DNA of 64,000 nucleotides from a virus. Below the pieces are notes generated by a model. That model was given only the letters and a program-made list of their open reading frames with translations, made no database searches and was not told the DNA's origin. Position 1 is the first letter of the stretch, and the number at the start of each line of letters is the position of its first letter. The translations under genes and the position numbers were made by a program. The stretch lies in the IMG/VR virus record IMGVR_UViG_3300022745_000022, positions 20,344 through 84,343 of that record; one strand, 5' to 3'. Of this stretch, positions 33,446 to 59,783 are shown in pieces.

Positions 33446-33675
33446 GGCTGAGCTTTGCCATAGGAGGATATCTGGAACCGGTGACCACACCACTACGGTT
33501 CGTACACCATGGCTACCTGTATGAAGAGATCGATGCCCCTGAGACAGTAGTCAAACTCCCGATCGTATTCCCGGTGAGCCTTGAAGTATATGACATACCG
33601 ATACAGAAGCGGAAAGTGGACGATGGTGAAATCTTACTATTGATTAACGCATTCATGAAAACACAGACACGATGA
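33442..33675 (+). CDS. Hypothetical protein, last gene of the inserted cassette
   Basis: 77 aa with RKVDDGEILLLI. ATGA-coupled on both sides. Confidence 0.55.
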   Translation: MRLSFAIGGYLEPVTTPLRFVHHGYLYEEIDAPETVVKLPIVFPVSLEVYDIPIQKRKVDDGEILLLINAFMKTQTR

Positions 33676-42600: not shown

Positions 42601-45329
42601 CACTGAACCGTGCCGGTGCACAGCTCGGTCAGGAGGTGGACCTCCTGCTCAAGAACGCGGCCCGTCGCAAAGAGGATGAGATCAACCGGTTGATCAAGCG
42701 GCTCAACGCTTTGGACAAGCTCATGGGTAAGGATAAGCAGGCCATCATGAGTAAGATGCTCGCCAATGGCCATGACCTCTCTCTTATCCAGAACTACACC
42801 ACCAAGTGGTTCAAGGACAGGGCTGGACTCTGGATGGAACGCCAGGGTAAACTCAAGCGTATCGGTGAGCTCAAAGGTGACCCGCAATCCATCGCCAAGA
42901 ACATCAAACGCATCTGGGATAACTTCTGGGCCAAGGCAGACACCATCGGTGTGTACGCCAACGTCAATGAGCTGTTCGAAGAGAACGGTGACCTGAAGAC
43001 GGACATCTCTGCTGAGCGTAGCAGGCTTGCTGAAGCACTGGGCAGTGAAGAGCATGCGGATGCCATGATCAACGAAGCACAGAGTCTATACCACCAGTTC
43101 CTGGAGGATCGTGAAGCTTACTATGAGCAGATCGATTCTCGTAAGGATGAAGGTGTCATCACCGATATCGAAGCAGATGCCGAGAAGCTGGAGTATGATA
43201 AGGCGCATTCTCCACGCAGGTTCTTCGCTAAGGAGAACGGGTTCAGTACCGGTGATCGTTATGCGGTCATCAAACCCCGCGCATCCTCCACGCAGTACCA
43301 CGATAGCGTGTTCAAGGAGATCATGAATGACGCCCGCATGAAGCAGGTGTATACGGAGATCAGCTCCATCCTGCGGGAAATGAAAGGCTACCTGCCACAG
43401 TACATCAAGTCCAACCTCCATGAGAACTTTGTGCCAGTGGTCTATCGTAACCTGCTCACGGACATGAGCACCAAGGAATACCTGCAATCCATTGGTCGCC
43501 AGCAAGTGGACTCCCTCACCGCAACTGAATACGAGGAGGGTCGCCAGAAGGCCACTGACATCCCTATACGCTTCGTGAACTACGACGTCAAGAAGGATGC
43601 CGAGTATTCCCGCGACCTGATGCGCACCACGGAGCTCTTCGGAATGATGGCCCTGCATTACAAGCACATGTCCGCCATCAAGGATGCCACGGAGATCGGC
43701 ATCTCCATCACCAAGGAGATCGACCGGATGCGCCGTGACGGTACCGCGCCTGGTGCCGTACTCACCAACCTGGTGAAGAGCATGGAACATGCCCGCGACC
43801 ACATCATGTACAAGAACGCGCGTATGCTCGAGGGCGGACTGGGAGTGAAGCTCTACAGTCCCAATCCCATTACCAACTACCGCAAGAGCAAGGAGGTTGA
43901 TAAGCTCAGGGCCAAGCGCGCAGACCTGGAGAAGGAATACCTTGATCCGCCACCGGACCGTACGCTGATGGATATCCGCAAGGACATCGACGCTGTGGAC
44001 GTGGAGCTGAGCAAGTTTGAAGGCCAGCAACTATACCTGTCCAAGATAGGCGACAAGCTCATCGGCATCAACCAGTTGAAGGCCCTCGGCTTCAACCCGC
44101 TGTCCGGCTTCGCCAACCTTTCCTTCGGCATCGCTTCACTGACCACTTATGCCAACGGTCGTCAGGACTTCACGATGAAGGAAGCTATGCGCGCCATGAA
44201 CATCATGAACAGTGCGCTGGGCAAGTGGTTCACCTTCGGTAATGTGAACTCCGAGACTGCGCAGAAGATCTATGCTCTCATGGAGAACACAGGTATGATG
44301 AGTGAGATCGTGGACACGCAGTATGGGGATTCGAACCTGCACAGCAGTAAGAAGAAGTGGAAGCGCGTGATCGATCCGTACGCATTGCTCCGTTCCTCTG
44401 ACTACTACATGAAGGGCGCCATCCTAGTGGCCACCATGCTCCATCACCAGGTGGATGTGTCCGAAGGGGGTGTATCCAAGAGGGTCTCCTTGTGGGACGC
44501 CTATGACCATGAAGGCAACTGGAAGTTCGATGAGCAGAAAGGCTGGACGGAAGAGCGCCCCGAGGAACGCTCCGAATGGGAGAAGTTCCGCAACCGCTCG
44601 CTTCGCGTAAGTCAGATCATCATGGGTAACATGGATAGGAACTCCCCGAAGTTCATGAACAAGTACATCCTGGGTAGACTCATTGGTCAGTTCCGCGCTT
44701 CTTGGCTTCCGGAAGGTTGGGCCGCACGCTTCGAGGATGAGAAGAACGACGTACAGCTTGGGCGTACCATCAAGGGTAGGTACCGCACGTACGCGGATAT
44801 CGGACTGGGAGGTTCAGTGACCATCATGCTTCGTCAGCTACTGGGTTCCATTAGCAAACAGGATCCCTTCACCGACGTACGCCTCAAAGGTGGTACGCGT
44901 GCAGGTGAACTGGTAGGAGATTCTCCAGTGGACATGGAGAACATGCGTAGGAACTTCACCGGTCTCATGTGGACGTTGTCCATGATGGCCGCAGTGCTCA
45001 TGCTGAAAGCAGCCATGCCCGACGATGATGACGATTACGGTAAGGAAAGTCTCATGCTCGTGTTAAACATGATGAACCGCCTGAACCAGGACTTGCAGTT
45101 CTACGGTTCTCCGGATGTGGCCAACAACCTGATCCGTAACGCTGTGCCAGCTTTCGATGTGGTCAACGATTACCTACGTGCAGTGTCCGCCACCAAGAAA
45201 GCACTGCTCATGGATGACTACGATTGGGACCAGGCTGCGTTGAAATGGACCAAGGCCACCCCGTACCTGAACAACATCAACAAATTCAAGTACTGGAGCA
45301 CGCACGACATCAGCACCATTAGCAGATAA
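33672..45329 (+). CDS. Virion-packaged DNA-dependent RNA polymerase polyprotein (two-barrel, crAss-like vRNAP)
   Basis: 3885 aa. Catalytic MGSDFDVDKL at 38592-38621, GIRIPTS at about 38478-38498, EYQKRL and TDAQEY beta-like motifs, and a zincin motif HELMH at 41010-41024. Confidence 0.93.
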   Translation: MSLANCLEKVDKKIASPLLEKWQKLVDDNMEEVKANRQILREYGEELNSRLNEVRSRANLKYANPTYTSQSAASINKSYDAKLRKLSPTMVTVEGEQLMTYEPVEEHSSEGKIDLHFAPDDMFSGVNTTDGVYDTLGEPNENQVIMQEIAGQPEKKMNFSNRMPAEQVTKNIQEFYEMAKEQPNKEFLVPYTAEFPNRAGMTGYSPRELANLFGAFPIPTNVIFQRQFRGLIENDPGRFIGNEIQLVDQGTREPLKVDQVALDKARRQMFIEIRDADGNKTGKFFSSQQQLEATDAVIAEVAKRVIRTEGRPDASQIFEDIRKQFIMLLDRAYTPMAAGTRVFSGDLDVFPHITQEMAKAYKLNMEQVLNSFEDVKREAVRRMSVQGIKVRTFDDSGTPEELFSLEEGKGLENFDDVHFALDPKATASTKMKLFMSTVENTEEGMKKRPRPISIPLKDEYRKQIVDGTRDRTVRTPEQIRELRLNVGEEYQDSSVFKIGDQIYVARAVKRLTAQEATEYNESPLREDYQAKEGDTMVTIKPYVEEHGLRSVPSFIGTSTLANFDSLYEDVTGLLAGNKPSFTNYMAILENSTKPAVRKLAEKLQDGSTPTQLRKEFVSVMTKAYTQYAMLQFSIQKDGAESFIYNANLYSIRNTIIKGWQEAQKASPIVTKDGAGNLLLNKEVLAELRNDYTTVRDLHTRITNGDVAASKAFKLASENLAKKMLTLNGVVLSDAAFEDMFKGIERYTMGTDFTGSWFRQWAMTKQGQPNGIFSAFMERLLGMDTDTVTNAIEQNNPLYMEPKTMKIIAKVATKYQEVLYNSSHKNVNGDNIWDYTLNTYLSDRHADLIGDDPTYRNKLKDTYLAQNNWLLKILEEKPAMRDNMELYYLEAMKKQYGTASAERSDMSDRDQLFMALHLMMNRGAAQMHMVALTHSDKTRTPVYMRMPRTQVATAEQISMELVDRLRSVVYGEFDRIAGHKDVKFRQQQYEKGKGMFYFLPEFNYENMQQLMKEGVITEAEFGNIWITKDQLNVPAKTTSDAKAVVDKLLYRFIQNETAVTRAKLVDAGLASPKEGTHKFNTDYLSKIMGAQTSSRIIKDRENTTYTIHGKSVLQDGRPVTAEMFLNHALDFVAMDYAMNSFLINTAMSTLIMGDPAQVFKTDLETTLKEYQKRLAGPIAPGKVAEWAKPTYKAIVLDDIKLGLQYTGLNAYFKGVNITDAQEYVTVQEHLDTLHTYGQITDQMYKEMVAVISPAGDYKFTGAQMKILMSITKPVYYGSQNVENKALLHDYIKSSALPLYPGFTQGNSKLDLLRRQMELSGISRAHFLSAQKEGAPVPADVFGDESLLNDGPWDVNKTPGVITLSRENWRIQQDVPHDPDKNKIKVFSQFNKLFVADLPAGISVETMDGRTLTRDQIREEKEKLRVNLLTKNLNEFMEDVGVEQTEDGFVLRNKAKLVKRMQEMARDKGYSANELLPITTMEEGMPMAPLFFTSLAQPMHNIMMSMVDKVNEVKVMGKSYVQASSAGIEQFSTSIPEGVRWVKGRTKGELQFMKKNADGSVAAAEVLIPFHFFNNGQKMSLDAFLDENGEVDTDKLPANLLEMIGIRIPTSKHNSALPIRIAGFLPENMGDTIIVPPGITTQMGSDFDVDKLYVYRRPYSMQEGKLSSTTDDEAQYFDLQWKVMTSPDMYDTVLSPLDKEDLKDEAKLASKKAEEGNFFGGVRQLSDFISQKDAKSLIGFSALTNTLLASIQHLNIRYGHVELGEDENGKKTRELVNDYITTFANLELGKLSGYGKSSYKGENRTKMDNIGIMMSEFLDHSKNRTIDKINLTMHTYAAASALMSLEDGMENALPLTYASRLLQQPIIREFNSRMSRGADMLEGYTPGLKENVFDNLFKSLVKKGANMEEAEKMSFTDTQLQYLLDHPRTDASYYTMQYALLSAFQKLDEIGQRMSEISSLVNQDVKGTGGDLFTAMDKLYKADNVLGDNILLNASDILAGERGWLFNNINGLAVDTFQDFLPHKEIYFSALADIAKITGRSTVTKLSNDVKKSVVKSLQSFVYSGMSSMRLGDPTAERARLLYDTTEGPSLAKRVLEAKYDWGKNNYFLSRLVTDIKNANEPAQVSFLAAKASRVDDQENVKGWLELLTSENPVAVRLGEDLLKYAYLTGGVQDASNFVKYAPFGYLMGIGWFPELREAYDNLHNILQGPFIEQWIRHNPEKTIQFSNKFKESGREIEGIPERVELPLPSTVEATHPVMKLIPKGENELPPYLSYRAPDGRVILYQQTAAGVFTRIDTLGDKTTDEYNRTNTRARSIIPSNRALADWTVDRKASAREASLIDLIMEHTLPKHFVEAGLSKVTTTGEELQKQVLPNLVNNGKIDPAASAIFKEVIRSKALDLPPVISTSHLTASIPTSYTGVYVGDKFNLIGLNPAKINSRSFLSEVLAHELMHWMTTNVLKRTSGTEKVKTARANLQRAFEEAAALRDEFGYQMQDIDEFVVAATTVPEFMKALNQIQSSEKVSLLSKVLEFIANMWHAAAELMGMKVNRDSLLDLVFTNVALLRNNDRGLRVLTPVDYEYNGQTVRIGVDTKGKALKVDHGFMEDAPEPQRQYEISRILSEYNRSGADIADSLFDMGGGRIANQFQREQLSKLQDFIQDPTPGVYILEGGKGIGKTTMVQHLQQVNPDLNFAWNNENMSGFHPETTDILVLDNTVTESMHPKTIIIRDTDEVSEERFQEPPNARFYGGASTFADARSIGPWTYRTPEEAAQAAQEAWDSLRLLSDLKDNKLLFYGESNAPFEQPQPMSPLISKMVSKLQDQRHTVLNSLDSPEVKNDRKKRAAKIVQLKKIDDDIDLMKKQNNLRAISTVGERQLNWIADSLEKGTLSPAEITTAWRVTDTWRNLLEYLYGGDTTLAIGQEIDPDLAKVSSRAVTMQQTMLKKNLIPAMMEISEGRLKAIDFGSTLKDMDMGTHLTMSLNRAGAQLGQEVDLLLKNAARRKEDEINRLIKRLNALDKLMGKDKQAIMSKMLANGHDLSLIQNYTTKWFKDRAGLWMERQGKLKRIGELKGDPQSIAKNIKRIWDNFWAKADTIGVYANVNELFEENGDLKTDISAERSRLAEALGSEEHADAMINEAQSLYHQFLEDREAYYEQIDSRKDEGVITDIEADAEKLEYDKAHSPRRFFAKENGFSTGDRYAVIKPRASSTQYHDSVFKEIMNDARMKQVYTEISSILREMKGYLPQYIKSNLHENFVPVVYRNLLTDMSTKEYLQSIGRQQVDSLTATEYEEGRQKATDIPIRFVNYDVKKDAEYSRDLMRTTELFGMMALHYKHMSAIKDATEIGISITKEIDRMRRDGTAPGAVLTNLVKSMEHARDHIMYKNARMLEGGLGVKLYSPNPITNYRKSKEVDKLRAKRADLEKEYLDPPPDRTLMDIRKDIDAVDVELSKFEGQQLYLSKIGDKLIGINQLKALGFNPLSGFANLSFGIASLTTYANGRQDFTMKEAMRAMNIMNSALGKWFTFGNVNSETAQKIYALMENTGMMSEIVDTQYGDSNLHSSKKKWKRVIDPYALLRSSDYYMKGAILVATMLHHQVDVSEGGVSKRVSLWDAYDHEGNWKFDEQKGWTEERPEERSEWEKFRNRSLRVSQIIMGNMDRNSPKFMNKYILGRLIGQFRASWLPEGWAARFEDEKNDVQLGRTIKGRYRTYADIGLGGSVTIMLRQLLGSISKQDPFTDVRLKGGTRAGELVGDSPVDMENMRRNFTGLMWTLSMMAAVLMLKAAMPDDDDDYGKESLMLVLNMMNRLNQDLQFYGSPDVANNLIRNAVPAFDVVNDYLRAVSATKKALLMDDYDWDQAALKWTKATPYLNNINKFKYWSTHDISTISR

Positions 45330-46732: not shown

Positions 46733-47374
46733 ATGTCATTCAATGCCACACAGCACATAGTCTTCAACAAGCCGGTGGGTATCGCGCAAGCGTTGCCCAC
46801 TGACGCGCGTTCGTACTTCTATGATGCAGTGAACTTCACCTACCGTCCTTACCAGAACACCGCTGAGGTGCTCGCGTACCTCGACCAAGCCAAGTATCGC
46901 AAGGGCCAGTTCCCCATCATCATCAACACGGGGGGTACACTCTCCGGGGGCCTGATCACCGGGGGCGTGAACGAAGAATGGTGGTTCAAGGATGGTGCCA
47001 GTGATGCTGACCTCGTGCAGAAGTCAGGTTCGACACTGGCCGGACCTCCCGGTCCAACGGGCCCTGCAGGCGCCACTGGCCCCCAAGGACCTGTCGGTCC
47101 GCAAGGCCCGAACGGCTCACAAGGTCCCATTGGTCCCAGAGGTCTAACAGGACCTGCCGGTCCTGCTGGTATCGGTGTTCCCGCTGGCGGTGCCACACGC
47201 ACCTTCCTGGGGAAAGTGGACGCTGCGGATTATAACGCCAACTGGTTCGTCATCAGGGAACTGCCCGTCGGTGGCGCACCAATGGATATCCTGGCCATCA
47301 ACATGCTGGGAGACCCTGAATGGCAACCGCTGAATGACCTGCTCGCCAGTAGGGTATTGACCGGAACTCTTTAA
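46733..47374 (+). CDS. Short collagen-like (Gly-X-Y) fibre protein
   Basis: About 14 Gly-X-Y triplets at about 47040-47170, followed by [24 protein letters not shown], a common phage fibre linker. Confidence 0.8.
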
Positions 47375-47387
47375 CAACAGAAATACC

Positions 47388-50300
47388 ATGAAGAAACTAC
47401 TCACAGTTCTCATCGCAGCGTCACTGGCCTTCGTGGTCAATGCGCAGACCTACCTGAACGGCTCCGGTCTTCCATCTTCGTACACAGGGTTCATGTCCCA
47501 GGGACTCACCAAGAGTACCACCACCTGGGTGGACGGTGTAGCCAACTCCGTGGAGACGATCGGTAATGGAGAAGCTACTTCCTTCGCTGCAGACAATCGG
47601 CAGGACTATGCCACCTATGGCCTGGTTACCACGCGCTCCAATACCGCGATGTCCGCTCCCTTTGCCATTGCCCAAGGAAATGTCGGTGGTTCCTCCACCA
47701 CACTGCAGGCTGTGGAGAACGGTGTGGACGTGGGTACCCAGGTGAACGTCTCCTATGTTATGAGTCGCATCGCATACACCAGCGGTCAGATCCTGTATCA
47801 ATACTCGAGTGATAGTACCAACTGGACCACCTTCTACACATCCACCGTATCACCCACTGGCTCCTACTATGTGGCCGTGCAGATCTACGGTGGCCCGCAC
47901 ACGGTGCGCAAGTGGTTCAAGACCGGCTCTGCCACAGCGAGCCCGGTGAATACGGTGACCACTCCGGTGACCGTCAACACGCCAGCTACCACCACGACCC
48001 TGACTGGCTCTGTAACCACCTCCAGTGGCACCATCACCGGCGTACTGTGGACCCAGCTCTCCGGCCCCAGCTCAGCCTCCATCACCGCACCGACCTCCAA
48101 CTCCACGGGGGTCAGTGGTCTTGTAGTAGGGGCCTACGTGTTCACCTACACCTCTACCAACAGTCTCGGGAACTCCACTGCATCAAATGTGACAGTGAGT
48201 GTAGTCCAGGTCAGCACGACGCCCACTGCCTCCACGCAAGGCTCCATCACCGTGGTCACCCCAACGACACTGGCCTCGCTTAACGGCTACGCCAGCACAC
48301 CATCCGGTACCATCAGCTCCCGCGCCTGGACCATGGTGAGCGGCCCTAATAGTCCGACTATCGCCAATGCCGCCGTGGATACCACGCTCGTCAGTGGCCT
48401 TGTGGTGGGTACCTATGTGTTCCGCTATACAGTGACCAACAGCTTCGGCGTGTCGGTCTTCTCAGACTTGACCATCAACGTGATCAATGCAGGAGCATCG
48501 ACTGCCTTTTCCTTCACTAACATCGCATCGACCACTGACCTCCCGGACTACGGTCGTGGCCTTGAACAGTGGACCAATGACCAGTGGGCAGTTCCCTTCC
48601 CAACCAACGGTAGTCCGCAGACGGGAAACTGTTATGACAACTACTACAGGTTCAAGTGGTGGGAGATCCAGAACGATGACTCCTCATTCACCTGGACCTT
48701 CTTTGACTCCAAGATCAACGCTGCCATCTCGGCCAACCGCAAGTTCAACCTGGCGGTGATGCCCATGGCAGAAAGTGATCCCAAGGCCAGTGCTGGCGGA
48801 CACCCGATGTCCTACCCGCTGTTCATGCACACCCTGATGCAGGCTGAGGGTACCCCGGACTGGTACTCCACCAGTCTCGGTCAGTGGGTCATCAACTGGA
48901 ACTCTCCGCAGTACCTGAGGGCCTGGGGTAAACTCCAGCGCATGATCCGTGATCATATCAATGCCGGCTCCTTCAATGGGGTGCCATACAAGAATGTGAT
49001 CGGCATCGTGGATATCCGCGGCTTTGGTAACTATGGGGAATGGCACACCTACCCCTGGACAGGTGAGATCACCTCGCCGTACCAGCCCACCTTCGCTACC
49101 ATCAAGTCCATCATCGACTCCAACCTGACCTACTTCCCGAACTACCTGGCGGTCATCCAGCATGAGGCGTTCGGTGGTACCAATGACGGTAACGCACAGC
49201 CCAACCTGCAGGGTCAATACTACGCACTCACAGCCACCAACAACAAAGGCCAGATCGGCTGGCGTCGTGACAGTTGGGGTTGGGCCGGTACCTGGTTCCC
49301 AGGCTTCCTGGAAAGCAACCCCACATCCTACGCAGGTAATGCATTCTCCCCGCTCATCATGAACAAGTGGAAGCTTGCTCCTGTGACCGGCGAACCCATG
49401 CAGTGCTGCACGCAGGACTACGGATTCACAGGTAACTATTACGGAGACCTTCCAAGACAAGCCGCCCTCTATCACCTGAGTAAGCTGGGTAATGGCAACT
49501 TGGAAGCCATAGGTACCTCCGCCACTAATGGTAACATGCAGACCACGGGTCATGCAATAGGCCACCGACTCATCTTGACCGGCGGTAATGCCTCCGCGCT
49601 CACTCCTGGTTCTTCCTTCACAGTGAATCTGGACTGGCAGAACGTAGGATCCACTCCTGCGTACTACGATTGGTTCGTGACTTACGAGCTCCGCTCCAGC
49701 ACGGGTACAGCGGTTTGGACTGGCACCAGTGCCTTCCGTCCCCGTCTGTTCCTGCCGGCCTCCACCTCCACGCGTGCCACGGACAACTTCACGCTGACCA
49801 ACACGGTACCCACGGGCTCCTATGGCCTGTACGTGAAGATCATCGACAGCCTTGCCTACATGGCGCCGATGAAGCTTGGCATCAACGGCCGTACGACCGA
49901 TGGTGCTTACCTACTGCAGAACGTGACAGTGGGCTCAGCTTCGGCTACCATCAGTGCAGGATCACCGCAGACTATCCAGGCACCTGCTTCCAGTGTAACA
50001 CTCTCCGCAACACAGACCGGCGGCCTCACAACTCCTACTTGGACACAGATCAGTGGTCCCACCACGGCTACCTTCAGTGCTGCTACGAGCATGACCACCA
50101 CGGCCTCCGGCCTGGTACCCGGCACTTATGTATTCAGCGTGACCATGTATTCCGGTGCCACGCCATACACTTCTATGGTGACCGTGACCGTGGTACAGGT
50201 ACATGTGAACACAGCACCAACGGTGAATGCCGGCTTTGACCAGAGCCTGCTTTACCCTGCACAGACCTCCACCACCCTGAATGCCACAGGTACCGATGCT

Positions 50301-51014
50301 GACGGCTTCGTTGCTTCTTATCAGTGGACCCAGGTGGCTGGTCCCAATACCGCAGTGATCGCCACACCAACACTGGCCACCACCCTCATCAGTGGACTCA
50401 CCACCGGCACGTACCGTTTTGCTGTTGTGGCTGTGGATAACCAGAGCCTGGCTTCTGCACCGGATACCGTGCAGATCGTCCTGAGCAGCGTGGTCAACAC
50501 GCCGCCAGTGGCCGTTCCTGGGCCGGCACAGACGATCAACACCTCTACTACTTCCCTATCCGGTACGGGTACCGATGTGGATGGCACCATCGCCTCCTAC
50601 CTTTGGGTCAAGGTCTCCGGTTCCGGTGGCGTGATTGCCAGCCCTACCTCAGCCACCACCACAGTGACCGGCCTCTCGGTAGGCGTCTATGTCTTTAGCC
50701 TCATGGTGACCGACAATCTAGGGGCCACTGGCTCCGCGAATCTGACCGTGACGGTGACTGCTTCAGGAGGCACCTCTTACAAGTACGTGAAAAGTGCAAC
50801 GTCCAGTACCATATACACGACCACGCCTCCACATCGGAAAGTGGTCATCCTATACACGGATAACTCCACGGAGGTGATCGAGTACAACTCAGGCGGCGCC
50901 GTTATCATGGTGGTGCGTCAAGGGTACTCTTACATCGACGGGTTCCGCAGACTGGTGGTGTACATTCGGTACTCCGACGGCACATACAGGATCATCTCAA
51001 AAATCGCCATCTAA
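47388..51014 (+). CDS. Signal-peptide protein with five PKD/REJ-like Ig repeats and a GH-A-type TIM barrel plus DUF4832-like domain
   Basis: Signal MKKLLTVLIAASLAFVVNA|Q. Repeats of the form W(T/V)x(L/V/I)(S/A)G...GLxxGxYxF (2 before and 3 after the catalytic part). Glycoside hydrolase-like YYRFKWWEIQ, DIRGFGNYGEWH and PVTGEP, then GHRLIL...WQNVGSTPAY. Confidence 0.75.
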   Translation: MKKLLTVLIAASLAFVVNAQTYLNGSGLPSSYTGFMSQGLTKSTTTWVDGVANSVETIGNGEATSFAADNRQDYATYGLVTTRSNTAMSAPFAIAQGNVGGSSTTLQAVENGVDVGTQVNVSYVMSRIAYTSGQILYQYSSDSTNWTTFYTSTVSPTGSYYVAVQIYGGPHTVRKWFKTGSATASPVNTVTTPVTVNTPATTTTLTGSVTTSSGTITGVLWTQLSGPSSASITAPTSNSTGVSGLVVGAYVFTYTSTNSLGNSTASNVTVSVVQVSTTPTASTQGSITVVTPTTLASLNGYASTPSGTISSRAWTMVSGPNSPTIANAAVDTTLVSGLVVGTYVFRYTVTNSFGVSVFSDLTINVINAGASTAFSFTNIASTTDLPDYGRGLEQWTNDQWAVPFPTNGSPQTGNCYDNYYRFKWWEIQNDDSSFTWTFFDSKINAAISANRKFNLAVMPMAESDPKASAGGHPMSYPLFMHTLMQAEGTPDWYSTSLGQWVINWNSPQYLRAWGKLQRMIRDHINAGSFNGVPYKNVIGIVDIRGFGNYGEWHTYPWTGEITSPYQPTFATIKSIIDSNLTYFPNYLAVIQHEAFGGTNDGNAQPNLQGQYYALTATNNKGQIGWRRDSWGWAGTWFPGFLESNPTSYAGNAFSPLIMNKWKLAPVTGEPMQCCTQDYGFTGNYYGDLPRQAALYHLSKLGNGNLEAIGTSATNGNMQTTGHAIGHRLILTGGNASALTPGSSFTVNLDWQNVGSTPAYYDWFVTYELRSSTGTAVWTGTSAFRPRLFLPASTSTRATDNFTLTNTVPTGSYGLYVKIIDSLAYMAPMKLGINGRTTDGAYLLQNVTVGSASATISAGSPQTIQAPASSVTLSATQTGGLTTPTWTQISGPTTATFSAATSMTTTASGLVPGTYVFSVTMYSGATPYTSMVTVTVVQVHVNTAPTVNAGFDQSLLYPAQTSTTLNATGTDADGFVASYQWTQVAGPNTAVIATPTLATTLISGLTTGTYRFAVVAVDNQSLASAPDTVQIVLSSVVNTPPVAVPGPAQTINTSTTSLSGTGTDVDGTIASYLWVKVSGSGGVIASPTSATTTVTGLSVGVYVFSLMVTDNLGATGSANLTVTVTASGGTSYKYVKSATSSTIYTTTPPHRKVVILYTDNSTEVIEYNSGGAVIMVVRQGYSYIDGFRRLVVYIRYSDGTYRIISKIAI

Positions 51015-51838
51015 TGAGCGTACTCACAATATCAACGGATATAGCATTACCAGGCAACCTGCCTGGTATGCTGTATCTTCCAGAAGTTCCGGAAACCGTT
51101 GCTGACGGTGTGTTCTCCATCGACGACGGTGCATCCATCTGGGTACGCCGACTCTGGGATAGTGGAGAGTTCATGGCGTCATGGCTGAGCTACAGCGCGG
51201 CACCATCGGACAAGACCAGCTTGCTGAATACCCTACTGGCGGACTCACGCTGCAAGATCCTGGTAGTAGACACTTCGGTGACCATCAACGGAACCGTCAC
51301 CGTGCCCTCCGGTAAGCTGCTCCGCTTCCAGAACGGAGGTGGGTTCACCGGTACCGGCACATTGATCAATCCGGTCTTCGAGGGAACGCTCAGCCTATCC
51401 CCCATCGGTCCGTCTATCGTACTCACCAATGCCACTTGGTTCTCCGAGCATCGGCTTACCACTGACGCCGAAGCGAACTCACTGGGCCTGCGCCAGTATT
51501 ACAATACGGCGACCAACACTCAGCGCATCAAGAACAATACCACCTGGTACGACATACCGACCACCGGTACCACGATCTACACGCTAACCCCTTCCACGGA
51601 CAGCTCGCAGGTCGTTCCGGCCGGCAAGATGATCAAGTGGATTACTGTGAAGAACGCCACTGGTCTGGCTGCATTCAAGATCGGCACCACGGTAGGCGGT
51701 TCTGACCTAGCCGTTCCACAGTCCGTCACTGCCGGCGTATCCACCACCTTCAGCATCCTGCTGGACAGCGATGCCGGCATCACGCTATACTTCGGAGGCA
51801 TCACCTCTGCGACAACCATCAAAATCTATACTGAGTAA
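51014..51838 (+). CDS. Tail-fibre-associated protein
   Basis: 274 aa. The N-half resembles tailspike N-termini (TINGTVTVPSGKLLRFQNGGGFTGTGTL). The C-terminal jelly-roll-like part is VPAGKMIKWITVKN...FKIGTTVGGSD. Confidence 0.55.
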   Translation: MSVLTISTDIALPGNLPGMLYLPEVPETVADGVFSIDDGASIWVRRLWDSGEFMASWLSYSAAPSDKTSLLNTLLADSRCKILVVDTSVTINGTVTVPSGKLLRFQNGGGFTGTGTLINPVFEGTLSLSPIGPSIVLTNATWFSEHRLTTDAEANSLGLRQYYNTATNTQRIKNNTTWYDIPTTGTTIYTLTPSTDSSQVVPAGKMIKWITVKNATGLAAFKIGTTVGGSDLAVPQSVTAGVSTTFSILLDSDAGITLYFGGITSATTIKIYTE

Positions 51839-51848
51839 ATCATACCCA

Positions 51849-54800
51849 ATGTTCAAGAAGATCCTGCACTATCTGGTTCCCATGATCCTGGCTACAGCTA
51901 GTCTCAAAGCACAGGTAATCACCGCACAGCGCATCGTGGCTACGGAGAACTTTCGTGCGCCACTGGATACACTCATCAACCCGCAGTACATATGGGAGGT
52001 GCGCTTCCGCCCGCAGGACACCTCGTGGTATACTGCTCAGGCGATGATTGGCCAGAAGTGGCTGAAGACAACCGTACCATCTGCAAATATATCCGGCGGG
52101 ACCGGTACGGTGACCGCTGTGAATGCCGGATATGGCATTTCCGGCGGTAACATTACAACCAGCGGCACGCATTCCGTGGATACTACATCCATCAGTACCA
52201 AGGCAAACGCCCAGAAAGTGGTAAATGACAGCTCCGCCATACTGCGGGCTCTTGCCAATACCAAACAAGCTACCCTTGTTTCCGGCACGAACATTAAAAC
52301 CATCAACGGTGTGCCCATCCTCGGATCGGGAGACACCACGGTTTCGGATTTCATCAACGCCAAGCAATACGGCGCGAAGGGCGATGGATCAACCGATGAT
52401 AGTAAAGCCCTGGTGCTCGCATACGCTGCCGCTCGGACACAAGGCAAGGACTTGTTCATCCCCGGTGGTACGTATGTGCTCAACTCGTTCTGGAACTTGG
52501 ATGGATCTGCCAACACGACGAACGGCATCTTTTTTCAGATGGGCAACGGATCGCCTCCCAACTACCGGAACGTCCGCGTTTTCGGTGAGGCCAAGACCAA
52601 GCTCACATCCTCTCTCAGCACGAACGGCGCAAGTGGTCAGGTTATATATTTCCAATGCCTGTACAATACCTCCGGGGTAACCTTTGAAAACATCTTCTTT
52701 GAGAGCACCCACAGCATCACGACCAACCAGGTTGTCGCAGTTCAGTATTCTGTCGGCTCCGCCGGAAGCACCGCATTTTATCCCCGCGTGGCCAACTGCC
52801 GGTTTGAGGGGTTCTCTCCCTCGATTCAGCTGAATGGTACGGTAAATCCGATCATCACCGGCAACGTATTCAACGCCCCGAAGGGTAGGGAGCAGGCGCA
52901 AAACAATACCAATCCGGCCTGTTTCATCACGATGTCCAGCACCAACACGGGTGCGGTCATCAACCCGATCATCACCAACAACTTCGCCAACGGATACTCT
53001 GGCACCGCATCGATCACCACCATGACCCAGAGGGCGATCATGGACAACTTCGTACAGGGTGATTGCATCGGTGGCTTGATTGCCAACAACGTGACCATCA
53101 ACCTGGGAACGGAACACATCATCGTGGCGGGGTACAACGGCTCAGGACAGACCAACGCACCGCTGCTGATCACAGGGAACGTGATAGATTGCTCCATCCC
53201 TTCCGGCACATGGGCGCTCCAGACCTCGACCCCGCTCACCAATACGGTGGGCATTCGTGCTGATAAGATGAACGTCAATATCTCCAACAACTTCATCTAC
53301 AACGCCACATGGGGCATCCTTCTCTACGGCGCGAACTACCCCAGCACCCAATACAAGAACACGGTTGTGTCGAACAACTCGGTATTCATGGATCAGGGCG
53401 CCAACAATACCAGCGTGGTGGTGCAGACGGGCATCCAGGTGCAAGGGTTCAACAACGCATCTTTCAAGCTGCTGAACGGCATGGTAACCGGCAACCAGAT
53501 CGTATTCGACAGTACCACCCTGCGCGGAACTGCTCAGGCTCTTTCGCTCAATGACTGCACCGGCATTCTGGCAAGGGACAATACCATGATCGTTCGCTCT
53601 GTGACCAAGGGCGGCAACAACCTCTATTTCATTTCGGCAACCAGGTCAACTGGAGATGCTGTTCGGAATATCGTACAGGATTCAACCATCCTCACCTCAT
53701 ACATCAGTTCGACCAGCTCCACCATCAACAGGTACGACTTGCAGTGGGGTACGATTGGCGGCACACTATCCAACCAGGCAGACCTTCAGGCCGCACTCAA
53801 CGCCAAGCAGAACAACCTCACGCTGACCACGACCGGCACCAGCGGAGCGGCTACGTTGGTAGGCTCTACCCTGAACATTCCGCAGTATTCCGGTGGGGGT
53901 TCTGGCATCACGGCTTTGACCGGTGACGTGACGGCTTCCGGTTCTGGCTCAGTAGCGGCCACCATTGCCAACGGCGCAGTAACGGTTCCCAAGCTGGCCA
54001 CCTTCAAGACCTACCCGGCAGAAAGGCAGCTCGGCACCACCTATGAGAAATACGGATGGACAGGGGCGGAAATGGGAGCGGACTTCTCGCCCGGTTCATC
54101 CATAACCATGGCCCTGAATGGAAACTACCCCCAGCTGACATCTTCGACCATCGTATGGGGCGGCACCGCCATCACGCGCTTCCTTCCGAGCAACCCGAGC
54201 CTGCTGCCGTACAAGAAGATCGAGTGCGACTACAAGATTGTCTCCTCACTTGGTTCCAACATCGGATTCGGGGTCTCCTTCTATTCTAACAATACCGCCG
54301 GCGCAAACTGGGGCTATACCACCTATCTGGCCTCCAACGCCTCTCCGGGCACACCCCACCTTGCCAAGCAGGATGGCACCCTGGACCAGACCGGCACCAA
54401 CATATCCTTCAGCGTGGGCGACGTCATCCGTACCACGCTTGAGTTCAAGGATTCCGTGGTGGTGGCCACTTTCCAGAATCTGACCACGGCGGGAGCAGTG
54501 ACCACGATTACCAAGACCCTCGCCTCCAACACCACGCCCTACACGGCCAACACCGGCACCTGGGCTTTGCAGAACTTCTCCGGCACCTACGAGGTCCAGC
54601 GATTGAAAGTATCCTCCACGAGTACAATCAACCCGACGCTCATGGTGGCCTTCGATTCCAAGGGCCAGATCAACGCCAACAACTTCGCCAGCCGGTTCTC
54701 GTCCCTGCTCAATCTCAGGTATCCCACTGTCCTCAACTACTCAGGTGGTGGCGACATGTTGAAGGACTTCATCGACAAGCGCTCTGAGATCAACCGCATC

Positions 54801-55967
54801 AACCCAGAACAGGTCCTCATTGGACTTGGTTCCAACGACCTACGCTACGGGAACTCTCTGGCCGTCACCGAATATAGGGTGGACCAGATCGTAAATATGT
54901 TCAGTGGATCTTCCACTAAGCTAGCCTTTACGATCATCCCGGAAGATAGTACCGGCGGTGGTACAGGGACAGGCATAGGCCTGACCGCATTGAAGAACTA
55001 CCTGTCGTCCACTTACCCCTCCAACTACATTGACCTGTGGACATTCATGAGCACGTCGAACGTGCTGAAGTCCACATACAATAGTGGGGAGGGTATACAC
55101 CCGAATAACGCAGGTCATAAGGTGATCGACTCGCTCATTGCAGCCAGTGGCTTCTTCAGCACTCAGTCCCCCAATAGATACACGCCCTACAAGTACACCG
55201 ATGGGATCGTAGTCGCTACTGGCGATAGCATCCACCTGGATTACAAAGTGTCGCGTGGTGCGAACTTCATGCCCCGGTTCAATGACAGCTTGAACATGGT
55301 ACCGTCACTGGTAAAAGATGATGGTGCACAGGTGCTCGTCTCCAAGAACCACAATGCTACAGCTCCCGCGTCAGGTGCGCTTGTCACAGTTGATGGCGCT
55401 ATGGCCTTTAAAGGAATCTTAGGATCTTCTGTATACTACGACAGAACTAACCCATCGAACTGGCATGGGATCTACTCAAATAGTAATAATCTGACGCTGG
55501 TATACAACAATTCGGACAACTTCTATTTCAACTCAGCAGGTGAATTCATCATACGCAACGCGACCGGATTCAATGACATTGGGGCCTACTCCCTGCAGAA
55601 CGCCGGCAACTCGTACTTGAACAGCACCGTCACACTGGGCTATAACACCACTGGTGCCAGTACTGACTCCTTCCTGGTCAAGAATGGTGGAGACATCAAG
55701 ATGCTAGCTGCGCCCCTACAGGGTTCAGCAGCGCTCAACTTTCCCAGCACGAACGCACAGAATTCCTCTGATCTCACGATCACCGTGACAGGTGCGGCAG
55801 ATGGGGATGTGGTGGAGCTCGGAGTTCCCAACGCAGCCGTGCTCACCAATTCGAACTACACCGCCTGGGTGAGTGCCACGAACACCGTCACCGTGAGGTT
55901 CAATAACTACTCATCAGGTGCTCAGGACCCGGCGAGTGGCACGTTCAAAGTCAGAGTTGTGAAGTAA
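51849..55967 (+). CDS. Tailspike-like depolymerase: signal peptide, pectate-lyase-like beta-helix, lectin-like domain and SGNH esterase
   Basis: Signal MFKKILHYLVPMILATASLKA|Q. Fibre linker KQATLVSGTNIKTING, beta-helix start INAKQYGAKGDGSTDD, SGNH blocks AFDS / SGGG / GLGSND / EGIHP. ATG 51849 is preferred over the track start 51771. Confidence 0.8.
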   Translation: MFKKILHYLVPMILATASLKAQVITAQRIVATENFRAPLDTLINPQYIWEVRFRPQDTSWYTAQAMIGQKWLKTTVPSANISGGTGTVTAVNAGYGISGGNITTSGTHSVDTTSISTKANAQKVVNDSSAILRALANTKQATLVSGTNIKTINGVPILGSGDTTVSDFINAKQYGAKGDGSTDDSKALVLAYAAARTQGKDLFIPGGTYVLNSFWNLDGSANTTNGIFFQMGNGSPPNYRNVRVFGEAKTKLTSSLSTNGASGQVIYFQCLYNTSGVTFENIFFESTHSITTNQVVAVQYSVGSAGSTAFYPRVANCRFEGFSPSIQLNGTVNPIITGNVFNAPKGREQAQNNTNPACFITMSSTNTGAVINPIITNNFANGYSGTASITTMTQRAIMDNFVQGDCIGGLIANNVTINLGTEHIIVAGYNGSGQTNAPLLITGNVIDCSIPSGTWALQTSTPLTNTVGIRADKMNVNISNNFIYNATWGILLYGANYPSTQYKNTVVSNNSVFMDQGANNTSVVVQTGIQVQGFNNASFKLLNGMVTGNQIVFDSTTLRGTAQALSLNDCTGILARDNTMIVRSVTKGGNNLYFISATRSTGDAVRNIVQDSTILTSYISSTSSTINRYDLQWGTIGGTLSNQADLQAALNAKQNNLTLTTTGTSGAATLVGSTLNIPQYSGGGSGITALTGDVTASGSGSVAATIANGAVTVPKLATFKTYPAERQLGTTYEKYGWTGAEMGADFSPGSSITMALNGNYPQLTSSTIVWGGTAITRFLPSNPSLLPYKKIECDYKIVSSLGSNIGFGVSFYSNNTAGANWGYTTYLASNASPGTPHLAKQDGTLDQTGTNISFSVGDVIRTTLEFKDSVVVATFQNLTTAGAVTTITKTLASNTTPYTANTGTWALQNFSGTYEVQRLKVSSTSTINPTLMVAFDSKGQINANNFASRFSSLLNLRYPTVLNYSGGGDMLKDFIDKRSEINRINPEQVLIGLGSNDLRYGNSLAVTEYRVDQIVNMFSGSSTKLAFTIIPEDSTGGGTGTGIGLTALKNYLSSTYPSNYIDLWTFMSTSNVLKSTYNSGEGIHPNNAGHKVIDSLIAASGFFSTQSPNRYTPYKYTDGIVVATGDSIHLDYKVSRGANFMPRFNDSLNMVPSLVKDDGAQVLVSKNHNATAPASGALVTVDGAMAFKGILGSSVYYDRTNPSNWHGIYSNSNNLTLVYNNSDNFYFNSAGEFIIRNATGFNDIGAYSLQNAGNSYLNSTVTLGYNTTGASTDSFLVKNGGDIKMLAAPLQGSAALNFPSTNAQNSSDLTITVTGAADGDVVELGVPNAAVLTNSNYTAWVSATNTVTVRFNNYSSGAQDPASGTFKVRVVK

Positions 55968-56007: not shown

Positions 56008-56015
56008 TATCTTTG
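56008..56015 (+). promoter_or_regulatory. Candidate Bacteroidota -7 element TATCTTTG ahead of the lysis cassette
   Basis: Exact TAnnTTTG match in the intergenic gap after the tailspike gene. Confidence 0.45.
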
Positions 56016-56016
56016 T

Positions 56017-56322
56017 ATGCAACACGAAAACGCGTTTCAAATGCCAGATAAGGAACAATTCGAGGACCTGGTTGACAAGGTCAATCAGATATTCCAAGCT
56101 TTGCTCGGGAATGAGATTTCAAAGGATGGTGGTATCGTGAAACGTCTGGTCACTGCGGAGTCAGAGATACAGAGGATAGATGCCAGACAGGACAAGCACG
56201 AAGCCCAGCTCAGCAAGTACAAAGCCTGGGTGTATGGTGCATGGGCCGTGATACCGATCGCAGTCAGCATGCTGGTGTACGTGATCAACTTCTTCCTGTC
56301 CCACCCATCCACCACCAAGTAG
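56017..56322 (+). CDS. Holin-like / XhlA-like membrane protein
   Basis: Coiled-coil N-part plus one C-terminal TM (WVYGAWAVIPIAVSMLVYVINFFL). The true start may be ATG 56041. Confidence 0.55.
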   Translation: MQHENAFQMPDKEQFEDLVDKVNQIFQALLGNEISKDGGIVKRLVTAESEIQRIDARQDKHEAQLSKYKAWVYGAWAVIPIAVSMLVYVINFFLSHPSTTK

Positions 56323-56341
56323 TCACCATAAAACAACAGAT

Positions 56342-56740
56342 ATGAGCAAAGAGAATGTAGTAACACTCATCAGGGCCCTGCTCACGGTAGTAGGCTCCTT
56401 CTTCGTGGGTAAGGTCCTTGCCGGCCATACCATCGACACCCAACTCTGGCAGTTGATCGGCGGCGCAGTGCTGACCGTGATCTCCACTGTATGGGGGATC
56501 TTCGATAAGAGCATCGCCGTGGAAGCCGCCGAAAGCGTCGTACGTCAGGTGGCTCTTGCCGTCGGTGGCGTACTCGTGGCTTTGGGCAAACTCTCACCGG
56601 ATAACCTGCAGACATACATCGGTGTCATCGCAGCCTTACTCCCGGTGATCCTATCCTTCCTGAGTAAGAAGAAATCGGTACAGTTGGCCACTGGCAAGAT
56701 CGAAGCCGGCCAATTGAAGGGTGTAAAGCAAGCCGCATGA
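56342..56740 (+). CDS. Holin with four predicted TM helices (tandem duplication of a 2-TM unit)
   Basis: Two similar halves, each R-x-x-L...GG/GS-x-x-V...G...(W/F)-x-x-x-x-K. Basic C-terminus. Confidence 0.7.
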   Translation: MSKENVVTLIRALLTVVGSFFVGKVLAGHTIDTQLWQLIGGAVLTVISTVWGIFDKSIAVEAAESVVRQVALAVGGVLVALGKLSPDNLQTYIGVIAALLPVILSFLSKKKSVQLATGKIEAGQLKGVKQAA

Positions 56741-57279
56741 TCCGCGCTATGTCATACATCTTAGTAGTGGTAGGGGTCATCCTGGTCGGGTGTAACCCCT
56801 ACTCTGCTTTGACACACAAGCTGCCGGAAAGCTCGCAGGACTCAGCAAGTCTCGCCCTACGCTGCCTGGCCACTTTCCCTGAGCGGGATACCAGCTTGAA
56901 GCCAGGACAGGTGGACACCACCATCCACTTTGAGATGGATTCTGTACAACTGAAGGCCTTCAAGCATCAGCTCGACTCCCTACGCCAGCGTATCATCGAT
57001 TCCCCGAATGTGGTGTTCAGCACCGATACCCTCATCAAGACATTCATAGAGCACTGCAAGCCGGTGGTCAAGGAGATCCGTGTACATTCCACTGACACTC
57101 TTCGCATCAAAGATGCAAAGGCTGAAGCCATGCTCAGGCAATCGTTACTGATCAACGAAGACCTCAAGCGCAAGCTGGCCAGCACTGGGAAGTTCATCTG
57201 GATGTTCTGGCTACTGCTCACCTTCATGATCCTCGAGCACATAATGATCATCGTCATCTTCCGTAAAAAACTGTTCTGA
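56737..57279 (+). CDS. Unimolecular spanin candidate
   Basis: N-terminal lipoprotein signal with lipobox LVG|C (Cys19), and a C-terminal TM ([23 protein letters not shown]) followed by RKK. Lies in the lysis cassette. Confidence 0.7.
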
Positions 57280-58538
57280 TGGCTGAATACCCCAAGATGG
57301 ACCAGGAAGAACCACACCCGGAAGGATGTGATTGTGGCTGTAAAGACCAGACTCCTGTGTCTGCTATCGGCATTCCCGGACCTCAGGGGCCTGCTGGTCC
57401 CAAAGGAGACAAAGGGGATATCGGCGATCCTGGTCCTCCAGGACCTCCCGGTCCTCCCGGTATTCAAGGTATCATTGGACCTGAGGGACTTCCCGGTGAT
57501 CCCGGTCCCAGAGGTCTTCCCGGAACCGTAGGCATTCAAGGCCCTCCTGGTATCCCCGGACCGGCCGGCGCTGACGGTGCTCCCGGTCCTACTGGTCCAG
57601 AAGGCCCTGAGGGTCCTGCGGGTCCTTCAGGAGGTCCTGCCGGTCCCAGTGCTTATGATGTAGCTGTCACCAATGGGTTCGTCGGTACGGAAGCTGACTG
57701 GCTGGCCTCCCTTGTAGGACCCACTGGCCCCACAGGTCCAACAGGTAGCACTGGTCCTGCTGGAGCGGCTGGCTTGGATGGCCCGATAGGCCCCGCTGGT
57801 CCAACTGGTCCTACGGGACCAACCGGTGCTACCGGTCCCGCAGGGCCTACCGGACCTACTGGCCCTATGGGTCCCGGCGGTGGAGATCCTGGACCTCCCG
57901 GACCGACAGGTCCTACAGGCCCAGCGGGTCCAACCGGTCCTGCAGGTCCCGGTGGTGCTATTGGTCCGGCTGGCCCTACTGGTCCCGCAGGTCCTACTGG
58001 TCCTGCCGGCCCAACGGGAGCAACAGGCCCCGCCGGCGCAACAGGTCCGGCTGGTCCCACAGGAGCTACCGGACCTTCAGGAACAGATGTCTCAGAGTAC
58101 GGGGACCTTCTACCGGCCACTGGCTTCCCATTTGCCTATGCTACGGGTACCGGCCCCTTGAGTAAACTGCTCAGGGTCGGTGGCAGTACACTGGTGGATC
58201 GCTCCCTGAAAACCATCACACTGAACTCGGTGATCTACCTCACCAACACCTTCTTCGTGTCTGGTGTGTGGACCAAGATCGCCACGGTGCCGACCAATTT
58301 CCGGCCGACGAATACGGTCCAGTGGGATATCCCCAAGCGCGTGGACGCTACCCAGTTCACCAACTTCGGCGGCACAGGGATGACCGGTACCAGTTTCCTC
58401 ACGGAGGCCAGTGCCAGGATAAAGCCCAACGGTGACCTGGAGGTCTACATGACCGGACCATCGTACGCCAACCTGGGGGGAAGCTCGATCCTCATCCTGC
58501 CGCTACACATCACGTACTTCTATATCTCCGGAGCATGA
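57279..58538 (+). CDS. Collagen triple-helix repeat fibre protein
   Basis: Long Gly-Pro-X runs interrupted by [24 protein letters not shown], a common phage collagen spacer. Globular C-terminal domain ([16 protein letters not shown]). Confidence 0.88.
57373..58080 (+). repeat. Degenerate 9-nt tandem repeats encoding Gly-X-Y
   Basis: Runs such as ggtcct/ggtccc/ggaccg + acN/gcN throughout. They also create the mirror antisense ORF 57653-58120. Confidence 0.9.
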
Positions 58539-58804
58539 ACCTCGTGAACATTGCCAAAGGCTGGGCCAACGTGGCCACACACCAGAATCTGGAGCTGATC
58601 CTGGAACGCCTGGCTGTGTGTGATGTCTGCCCGCACAAGCGGCAACTCTCTCCCGCTGGTCAGCTCCTGATCACTGTCTTCAATTCAGAAGCGAACACAT
58701 TCTACTGCGCGCTCTGTGGTTGCCCACTGGCGGCCAAGACTTCAGTGGCCACTGAGAAGTGCCCTGAAGGCGCGTGGAACGCAAAAGAAACCTCATACTA
58801 CTGA
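58535..58804 (+). CDS. Small Cys-rich (Zn-binding, DUF6171-like) protein
   Basis: ERLAVCDVC...[12 protein letters not shown]....EKCPEGAW pattern. Confidence 0.7.
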
Positions 58805-58805
58805 T

Positions 58806-59747: not shown

Positions 59748-59783
59748 AAAAAAAAAGCCCTCCAAGTGGAGGGCTTTCTTATT
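59748..59783. terminator. Bidirectional intrinsic terminator between the convergent late and early modules
   Basis: A9-GCCCTCC-AAGT-GGAGGGC-TTTCTTATT perfect stem, flanked by an A-tract and a T-rich tract. Confidence 0.92.

Follow-up and report, generated by a model that had tools for sequence, protein, structure and literature searches.

Predicted Gln-exposing signal peptides on two putative receptor-binding-type enzymes of a crAss-like Bacteroidota phage

Related systems described so far

The established view is that tailed phages complete their particles within the cytoplasm, and virion assembly is cytoplasmic in all studied cases. SGNH-esterase tailspikes are known from Escherichia coli phage G7C (gp63.1) and acetyl-esterase tailspikes from Vi-specific Salmonella phages, while exported phage proteins encoded beside fibre genes are represented by lambda Lom, T5 Llp, and phi80/N15 Cor. 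Here we analyze two large open reading frames (ORFs), ORF 1 and ORF 2, of a phage from freshwater metagenomes. Both lie in the window, the whole 64,000-nucleotide stretch of DNA studied, which corresponds to bases 20344-84343 of the 94,294-bp virus record IMGVR_UViG_3300022745_000022, rated complete by CheckV. An original prediction made from the letters alone had claimed that each ORF starts with a leader of the Sec/signal peptidase I (SPI) type directly followed by Gln, which their sequences confirm.

The G7C and Vi-type esterase tailspikes resemble ORF 2 in carrying an SGNH module in a fibre-like chain, and they are virion receptor-binding proteins that de-O-acetylate surface polysaccharide. 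Their assembly is cytoplasmic and, unlike ORF 2, they lack a signal peptide; tblastn with ORF 2 detected no similarity to them. Lom, Llp, and Cor mask receptors and are small lipoproteins or proteins of the outer membrane, produced early or in lysogens, whereas the products considered here are late-operon, fibre-type enzymes of 1200-1400 amino acids (aa). With 1208 and 1372 aa and no promoter or terminator of their own above shuffled sequence, ORF 1 and ORF 2 do not fit this moron or receptor-masking type.

The leaders themselves carry the signature of Bacteroidota SPI substrates, including the Gln at +1 that, by the Q-rule, would be exposed and cyclized (PMC10653852). Proteins with Q-rule signal peptides have been reported from Porphyromonas gingivalis phages (Matrishin et al. 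2023, PMC10367356; again in PMC10653852). These share with ORF 1 and ORF 2 a phage-encoded SPI leader that exposes Gln, but they are the products of five function-unknown genes of temperate phages, discussed as secreted modifiers of the host surface and not as tail-module fibre enzymes. In the literature searched, Q-rule leaders in phage proteins appeared only in this P. gingivalis work, and no paper described signal-bearing fibres in Flavobacterium or Cellulophaga phages or the leaders of phage phi10:1.

Cellulophaga phage phi10:1 (KC821618) offers a further comparison. Its gp091-gp094 are annotated as "structural protein" on the basis of experimental tandem mass spectrometry (MS/MS), and all four start with a signal followed by Gln, as does its pectate lyase gp095. 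Like ORF 1 and ORF 2, gp091-gp095 are large leader-plus-Gln proteins that end a tail gene row, here before holin-like genes and a GH108 lysin, and gp093 contains a pectate-lyase-like beta-helix with weak similarity to the start of the ORF 2 beta-helix. Across several genera, 33 Cellulophaga phage records contain a homologue of gp093, among them phi19:1, phi19:3, phi46:3, phi13:2, and Ingeline. In contrast to the phage studied here, phi10:1 is a siphovirus of a marine flavobacterium and lacks both the lectin-plus-SGNH core and the PKD-glycosidase; its proteins also carry an MS-based structural annotation that ORF 1 and ORF 2 lack.

Leaders and modules of ORF 1 and ORF 2

The large terminase, portal, and major head protein of the phage match crAss-like PHROG families, and its terminase shares about 29-30% identity with the terminases of Flavobacterium FPSV phages and gut crAss-like phages. 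A plus-strand gene block runs from the terminase through a 3885-aa giant ORF resembling virion RNA polymerases (vRNAP-like, 33672-45329) to about 59.7 kb. ORF 1 and ORF 2 are placed between this giant ORF and the lysis genes, among the fibre and collagen genes that had been predicted, with collagen-repeat ORFs at 46733-47374 and 57279-58538 on either side (Table 1).

The leader of ORF 1 consists of an MKK n-region of charge +2, an h-region of about 14 aa with a Kyte-Doolittle (KD) value of 2.68, and V-N-A at positions -3 to -1, with Gln at +1. Both leader and Gln are kept in two phage orthologues, P0004 (..VGYS/QT, the slash marking the predicted cleavage site) and P0008 (..TGFA/QT), despite drift of the leader sequence. 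For ORF 2 we used the start at 51849 rather than the listed 51771, because the latter overlaps the upstream gene, which ends at 51838. From this start, MFKK is followed by a 15-aa h-region and by L-K-A before Gln +1. The h-region, ILHYLVPMILATASL, is weaker than that of ORF 1 and contains H, Y, and P, its best 9-aa KD mean being 2.17. The leader and first mature residues of ORF 2 can nonetheless be aligned to those of relative P0153 (MKRIIPILLLFLPALVSG/QVTQYTAKRIVATD versus ...SLKA/QVITAQRIVATE).

All leader calls come from a home-made heuristic rather than a trained predictor. A protein is flagged if a 9-aa window close to its N-terminus reaches a KD of at least 2.3, is preceded by net positive charge, and is followed by a small residue and Gln. 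Since just 38 of 70 genuine cargo proteins of the type IX secretion system (T9SS) were recovered (about 54%), the heuristic is conservative, and among 39 ORFs of the window it flagged only ORF 1 and the lipoprotein at 56737. The leaders of ORF 1 and ORF 2 look genuine and are under selection. A third leader-plus-Gln ORF of 160 aa (MKNFIVLILVSMFHVHGMA/QY) is encoded by the same phage outside the window, on the minus strand of its early or other arm (G000:C1 ~11630-12112).

Both proteins had been called carbohydrate-active, and domain searches agree. Pfam finds five K319L-like PKD repeats and DUF4832 in ORF 1, and a pectate-lyase-like beta-helix together with a GDSL/SGNH domain in ORF 2. The DUF4832 match of ORF 1 (PF16116) reaches 37.6 bits, above the cut-off of 29.2. 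An AlphaFold2 (AF2) model of residues 375-850, with a mean predicted local distance difference test (pLDDT) score of 80.7, forms a TIM barrel plus a beta-sandwich. Foldseek matched it to barrels of glycoside hydrolase families GH14, GH5, GH35, and GH158 (E 1e-9 to 1e-6), the resemblance to GH14, GH5, and GH35 being distant, with template-modeling (TM) scores of only about 0.4. Within this module Glu551 (in GEWH) is conserved in at least 90% of aligned homologues and Glu669 (in GEP) is invariant; from this conservation we take the two residues as candidate catalytic residues of ORF 1.

The ends of ORF 1 are specific to phages. By BLAST, its N-terminal domain is found only in the two phage orthologues and in none of the 117 other homologues; a lectin- or GH43_C2-like match in the ESM Atlas (score 0.86) gives a weak lead to its fold. 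The C-terminal domain yielded only weak Rib-like Pfam matches at permissive E values and no usable ESM Atlas match. P0004 is 66% identical to ORF 1, and P0008, 36% identical, is encoded right behind head genes on a 48-kb phage contig. Many of the remaining homologues are Bacteroidota proteins from genomes and metagenomes, and a T9SS sorting domain is terminal in 77 of 119 homologues. PKD-domain matches include metagenome-assembled genomes named Chryseolinea, Ohtaekwangia, Cyclobacteriaceae, and Phnomibacter, and DUF4832 matches include P0006, P0010, and P0013. These T9SS-borne PKD-DUF4832 glycosidases of Bacteroidota resemble ORF 1 in the module (35-43% identical), in the PKD repeats (37-47%), and in the Sec leader present in all of them. 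They differ in that the glycosidase follows directly behind the leader and a T9SS domain closes the protein, whereas ORF 1 has N- and C-terminal domains of its own.

We considered two other readings of ORF 1. A leader left over from a captured host gene was rejected, given that the phage leader heads a phage-only N-domain, unlike in the bacterial homologues; since ORF 1 keeps a leader although both its end domains are particular to phages, the leader is not inherited baggage. A Sec-exported endolysin was also rejected, as the phage has an M15 endolysin and the relatives of ORF 1 are polysaccharide-type enzymes. Pattern scans of IMG/VR and GenBank phages found no close relatives of ORF 1 or ORF 2, tblastn with ORF 1 against phage records gave no match, and a sequence search of the PDB returned nothing useful.

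ORF 2 is built in the order short N-domain, linkers, beta-helix, linkers, lectin-like sandwich plus SGNH esterase, and variable tip. What had been called classic fibre linkers are indeed recurrent, as the motifs KQATLVSGTNIKTINGxxILGSGD and LTLTTTGTSGAATLxGxxLNIPQY reappear in fibre-like proteins of other phage contigs; P0126 and P0130, the two linker-sharing proteins examined in context, are encoded on phage contigs. Relatives align with the beta-helix across residues 164-631. Over the lectin/SGNH part the AF2 model has a pLDDT of 78.8, exceeding 85 in most 10-residue blocks of the beta-sandwich, which Foldseek matched to legume lectins (TMt 0.54-0.63). The GDSL/SGNH match (PF13472) reaches 32.4 bits with the full ORF, just below the cut-off of 32.9. 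All 25 aligned relatives have the catalytic-motif Ser and His, at least 90% of them also have the Asp, and the GSND block is conserved; ORF 2 itself reads FDS...GSND...EGIH, with Glu replacing Asp. With the lectin-like and SGNH parts together, Foldseek matched the acetyl-xylan/CE2 esterases 7tog, 2waa, and 2wao (E 3e-9 to 1e-7), which likewise combine a beta-sandwich with an SGNH unit but are free bacterial enzymes with low TM scores (0.24-0.41) and 10-14% identity. The conserved blocks, the SGNH fold, and the preceding beta-sandwich are those of SGNH/GDSL (CE2-like) esterases, and the modeled pair of domains makes up a CE2-like two-domain unit, which is the core conserved among the signal-bearing relatives. 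Tips unrelated to that of ORF 2 occur in other members of the family. The ORF 2 tip is 37% identical to a Caudoviricetes record, and this domain gave the only match of a tblastn search with ORF 2 against 50,697 phage records.

Signal-bearing relatives and gene context

An exhaustive, profile-free search with ORF 2 returned 2382 relatives at E<1e-3, and leaders were surveyed in the best 149 representatives among them. A leader plus Gln was found in 81 of the 149, a leader only in 13, and the pattern behind a long n-region in 7 more; among the 90 relatives of at least 800 aa, the proportion rose to 71 (about 80%). The longest contig was at most 146 kb for all 20 relatives sampled. All eight contexts examined were phage contigs or a prophage, the family protein usually standing at the end of a tail-like gene row, near lysis genes. 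Contigs L005 and L006 carry terminase, SPP1-type portal, and capsid genes; the family protein adjoins endolysin genes on L007, L009, and L013, and on L010, L011, and L017 it keeps a fixed position after a giant protein of 1.5-2.3 kaa and three small genes. A prophage on a 146-kb contig (L016:10001-23996) encodes the leader-plus-Gln SGNH fibre protein P0164 beside a helix-turn-helix (HTH) regulator and SusD/SusC-type genes, which provides a direct link to a Bacteroidota host and shows that temperate phages also carry such proteins. At the loci examined, leader-plus-Gln proteins are large fibre-like proteins and their neighbours, with one small exception, and the remaining heuristic flags are mostly small membrane- or lysis-type proteins such as lipoproteins.

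Host-type secretion signals on fibre-type enzymes recur in hundreds of related uncultured phages and are a widespread trait of Bacteroidota phages that has gone essentially unpublished. The locus had been put forward as an undescribed system, and this holds for the combination of features, which the literature searched does not describe, but not for any peculiarity of this phage. In a siphovirus-like arrangement on L005:10001-16539, found also on L006, two neighbouring genes between portal and capsid encode a leader-plus-Gln fibre-repeat protein (882 aa) and a PKD/CBM6 protein (476 aa) that also bears a leader. Next to this pair is the gene for a 542-aa protein containing ADP-ribosyltransferase domains (PF01129, PF03496).

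The ORF 2 family combines a handful of recurring N-terminal classes and conserved middle modules with many unrelated tips. Modules are also shared between its signal-bearing members and signal-less fibres of the phage. The N-domain (about 95 aa) of the collagen-repeat fibre at 46733-47374 recurs, at 46-61% identity, in nine signal-bearing giants (P0188, P0187, P0203, and others), and the homology starts at the predicted +1 or +2 residue of the giants, with the initiator Met of the fibre aligned to their +1 Gln. The leader therefore behaves as a separable add-on of exactly the predicted length. Furthermore, the tips of the proteins encoded at 51014-51838 and 57279-58538 recur at the ends of signal-bearing proteins, the C-terminus of the former resembling the tip of P0177. 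The first 105 aa or so of the 51014-51838 product are 41-55% identical to the N-termini of proteins on L003 and L004 (664 and 810 aa) and on L002 (397 aa). In the phage that carries P0004, this N-domain heads a beta-helix tailspike (L003:4762-6753, L004:3161-5590); in the phage studied here, the anchor-like domain and the beta-helix are encoded by different genes, of which the one for the beta-helix has acquired a leader.

The placement of ORF 1 and ORF 2 in a late structural operon among fibres, and their modular build with an exchangeable tip, are those of fibre and tailspike proteins. By these features this crAss-like Bacteroidota phage is predicted to encode, in both ORFs, receptor-binding-type proteins of modular build, either fibres or tailspikes that bear enzymes, in agreement with the host and protein type originally proposed.

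Genes in this part of the late operon are separated by gaps of 10-13 nt or overlap. Promoter- and terminator-like sites around ORF 1 and ORF 2 are at or below the shuffle expectation, none standing above chance, and the sole strong terminator-like site between 44.5 and 60.5 kb is a bidirectional one at 59751-59780 that closes the late block. It is formed by a GC-rich hairpin of 13 bp flanked on each side by T-runs and lies between the convergent late (+) and early (-) blocks. A Bacteroidota -7-type motif, TATCTTTG, occurs at 56008-56015 (+), 2 nt upstream of the ATG of ORF 56017, where the lysis cassette begins; across the window the motif shows no enrichment, with 10 matches where 15.6 are expected. 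From 56017 to 59291 (+), lysis and fibre genes are interleaved in the order holin, spanin-like lipoprotein, collagen-repeat fibre, small ORF, and M15 endolysin. The spanin-like lipoprotein, directly after the holin, contains 6 Bacteroidota O-glycosylation sequons against 0.6 expected (p<0.0005).

Table 1. Features of ORF 1, ORF 2, and neighbouring genes (window coordinates)
Feature	Coordinates	Strand	Evidence
Collagen-repeat fibre, signal-less, 213 aa	46733-47374	+	Pfam Collagen, PHROG tail-fibre matches
ORF 1, 1208 aa	47388-51014	+	Pfam, BLAST, AF2
ORF 1 predicted signal peptide, 19 aa, MKKLLTVLIAASLAFVVNA, then Gln	47388-47444	+	Leader kept in orthologues
ORF 1 phage-only N-terminal domain, aa 20-200 (~180 aa), possible concanavalin-like lectin fold	47445-47987	+	BLAST
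Two K319L-like PKD repeats of ORF 1	47988-48512	+	PF22352; 37-46% identical to PKD repeats of Bacteroidota T9SS cargo
ORF 1 putative DUF4832-type glycoside-hydrolase module, aa 375-850, TIM barrel plus beta-sandwich	48510-49937	+	PF16116, AF2, Foldseek
Three further K319L-like PKD repeats of ORF 1	49938-50762	+	Pfam PF22352, BLAST
ORF 1 phage-only C-terminal domain, ~85 aa, at the position of the homologues' T9SS domain	50760-51014	+	Common to P0004 and P0008 only
Fibre/adaptor-like protein, signal-less, 274 aa	51014-51838	+	N-domain shared with beta-helix tailspikes of related phage
ORF 2, 1372 aa (true start MFKK)	51849-55967	+	Gene-caller start in public collection (P0123)
ORF 2 predicted signal peptide, 21 aa, MFKKILHYLVPMILATASLKA, then Gln	51849-51911	+	Heuristic borderline; alignment to P0153
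First fibre linker repeat block of ORF 2	52071-52346	+	BLAST to P0124, P0126, P0127, P0128, P0129, P0130
ORF 2 right-handed beta-helix (pectate-lyase/rhamnogalacturonase-like), depolymerase-type	52338-53741	+	PF12708, 34.4 bits
Second fibre linker repeat block of ORF 2	53739-53984	+	BLAST
ORF 2 legume-lectin/ConA-like beta-sandwich	54006-54650	+	AF2, Foldseek
ORF 2 SGNH carbohydrate esterase	54651-55160	+	PF13472, alignment, Foldseek
ORF 2 variable C-terminal tip	55593-55967	+	Shared with P0170, P0194, P0205, P0158, P0174, P0179
Holin	56342-56740	+	PF23987 (Pam3 gp28 family), E 6e-23
Unimolecular-spanin-like lipoprotein, 180 aa	56737-57279	+	N-terminal lipobox (ILVGC), C-terminal transmembrane helix
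Collagen-repeat fibre, signal-less, 419 aa	57279-58538	+	Pfam/PHROG; tip domain common to signal-bearing P0201, P0231
Endolysin (Peptidase_M15_4)	~58806-59291	+	Match at G000 79446-79616 = window 59103-59273

Destination of the exported proteins

Secretion beyond the periplasm was assessed in three ways, namely, hhalign against a 26-sequence profile of the T9SS C-terminal domain (CTD), Pfam at E up to 10, and home-made hidden Markov models (HMMs) of the type A (PF18962) and type B (PF13585) domains at E<1e-5. The C-domain of ORF 1 matched the CTD profile with a probability of 0.7%, and Pfam detected no T9SS CTD in ORF 1 even at the permissive threshold. The HMMs were negative for all 150 sequences of the ORF 2 set (ORF 2 and 149 relatives), while the same models were positive in 77 of 119 ORF 1 homologues. 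T9SS export of ORF 1 and ORF 2 was rejected on these profile-profile, permissive Pfam, and HMM results. As neither protein has a T9SS sorting domain, export should end in the periplasm.

Three models had originally been offered for such proteins: fibres that mature in the periplasm and attach to particles at lysis, enzymes exported to strip the host's own capsule, and depolymerases released at lysis as a public good. We tentatively favour the first, which we hold to be plausible though short of probable. Late in infection, Sec would translocate the pre-proteins of ORF 1 and ORF 2 into the periplasm, where signal peptidase I would cleave before Gln and the host would cyclize this residue to pyroglutamate. 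Folding would take place in the periplasm, the natural milieu of PKD, lectin, glycosidase, and esterase modules, and the missing T9SS sorting domain would retain the proteins in that compartment up to lysis. Once the holin, endolysin, and spanin encoded next to them had merged the compartments, the proteins would meet and dock on particles built in the cytoplasm, on which they could act as host-recognition organs that bind, cut, or de-O-acetylate glycans. What speaks for docking is the appearance and evolution of the proteins, which resemble those of receptor-binding proteins, together with the phi10:1 annotation. The support that periplasmic maturation gains is indirect and comes from the N-domain shared, from the cleavage site onward, with a signal-less fibre and from the same annotation. 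Export, cleavage, and virion incorporation of ORF 1 and ORF 2 in this phage are what we infer.

Several observations weigh against periplasmic maturation followed by docking. We know of no described mechanism by which fibres attach after export. The detection of phi10:1 proteins by MS could reflect co-purifying secreted protein. The phage has several signal-less fibre candidates, possibly sufficient for adsorption, and in the structural and late genes scanned, the cultured crAss-like Flavobacterium phage FPSV-S29 encodes no signal-bearing large proteins, so that crAss-like particles do not need signal-bearing fibres. The ORF 2 leader falls narrowly below the heuristic cut-off (2.17 versus 2.3). 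Finally, ORF 1 shows no enrichment of O-glycosylation sequons (4 against 4.5 expected), and in ORF 2 the enrichment is only about two-fold (10 against 4.9 expected, p 0.02).

Nearly as likely is the alternative that the proteins are exported and never become part of the virion. They would then be free enzymes acting on nascent or recycling periplasmic glycans, or, after lysis, a depolymerase and esterase that clear capsule and debris and so prevent the trapping of progeny, which corresponds to the receptor-destruction or public-good model. Leaders without an outer-membrane sorting signal, enzymatic modules in both ORFs, their position adjoining the lysis cassette, the phage's own signal-less fibres, and the cytoplasmic assembly of known tailed phages are all consistent with free enzymes. 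Such enzymes would not be expected to hold a fixed place in the tail-like gene rows of several unrelated phage types, nor to combine fibre linkers, conserved N-domain classes, and swapped tips in the manner of receptor-binding proteins, and the signal-bearing counterparts in phi10:1 are annotated as virion proteins.

The capsule-stripping model fares less well. It loses the passage across the outer membrane, for which no T9SS CTD is present, and keeps only an action confined to the periplasm. Classical superinfection exclusion also fits poorly because these are late-operon genes without their own promoter or terminator.

The hydrophobic N-termini could, in principle, go unused for export. The proteins would then join the tails in the cytoplasm while retaining an uncleaved segment, which might, for instance, sit hidden in a trimer or baseplate socket, or only a minor fraction would be exported. 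The weak leader of ORF 2 and the cytoplasmic assembly of all tailed phages studied point in this direction, and the MS detection of phi10:1 proteins in particles is equally compatible with it. We nevertheless consider this unlikely, since a positively charged n-region, an h-region, small residues at -1 and -3, and Gln at +1, the published signature (PMC10653852), are conserved across about 80 diverged proteins, and since the same N-domain works without such a segment in ORF 46733. Display on the cell surface through T9SS or another route, modifying the receptors of the infected cell to exclude superinfection, is very improbable: the ORF 1 homologues from Bacteroidota genomes and metagenomes are T9SS cargo and receptor-masking proteins beside receptor-binding genes are known (e.g., T5 Llp and phi80 Cor), but ORF 1, ORF 2, and the 149 relatives lack a type A or B domain and the genes occupy a late-operon position devoid of promoter or terminator signals of their own.

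Returning to periplasmic maturation, its extension beyond this phage is more tentative still. A large group of tailed Bacteroidota phages might assemble virions in two compartments, with Sec-exported, pyroglutamate-trimmed, and perhaps O-glycosylated fibres that attach to particles built in the cytoplasm only after the holin opens the inner membrane. Tailspike enzymes and Q-rule secretion are known kinds, whereas two-compartment virion assembly, of which to our knowledge no tailed phage provides an example, would, if true, be new in kind.

The window is further evidence that many Bacteroidota phages send enzymes of receptor-binding type through the secretion pathway of the host, and the leader plus Gln offers a simple sequence marker for assigning uncultured phages to Bacteroidota hosts. 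If this routing is confirmed, the picture of fibre assembly would be altered, and depolymerases of these phages would need export, pyroglutamate formation, and possibly glycosylation for their expression. The recognition of tail-fibre genes in viromes would change as well, as pipelines may discard signal-bearing proteins as "host-like," and there would be a bearing on host-range engineering of crAss-like and other Bacteroidota phages.

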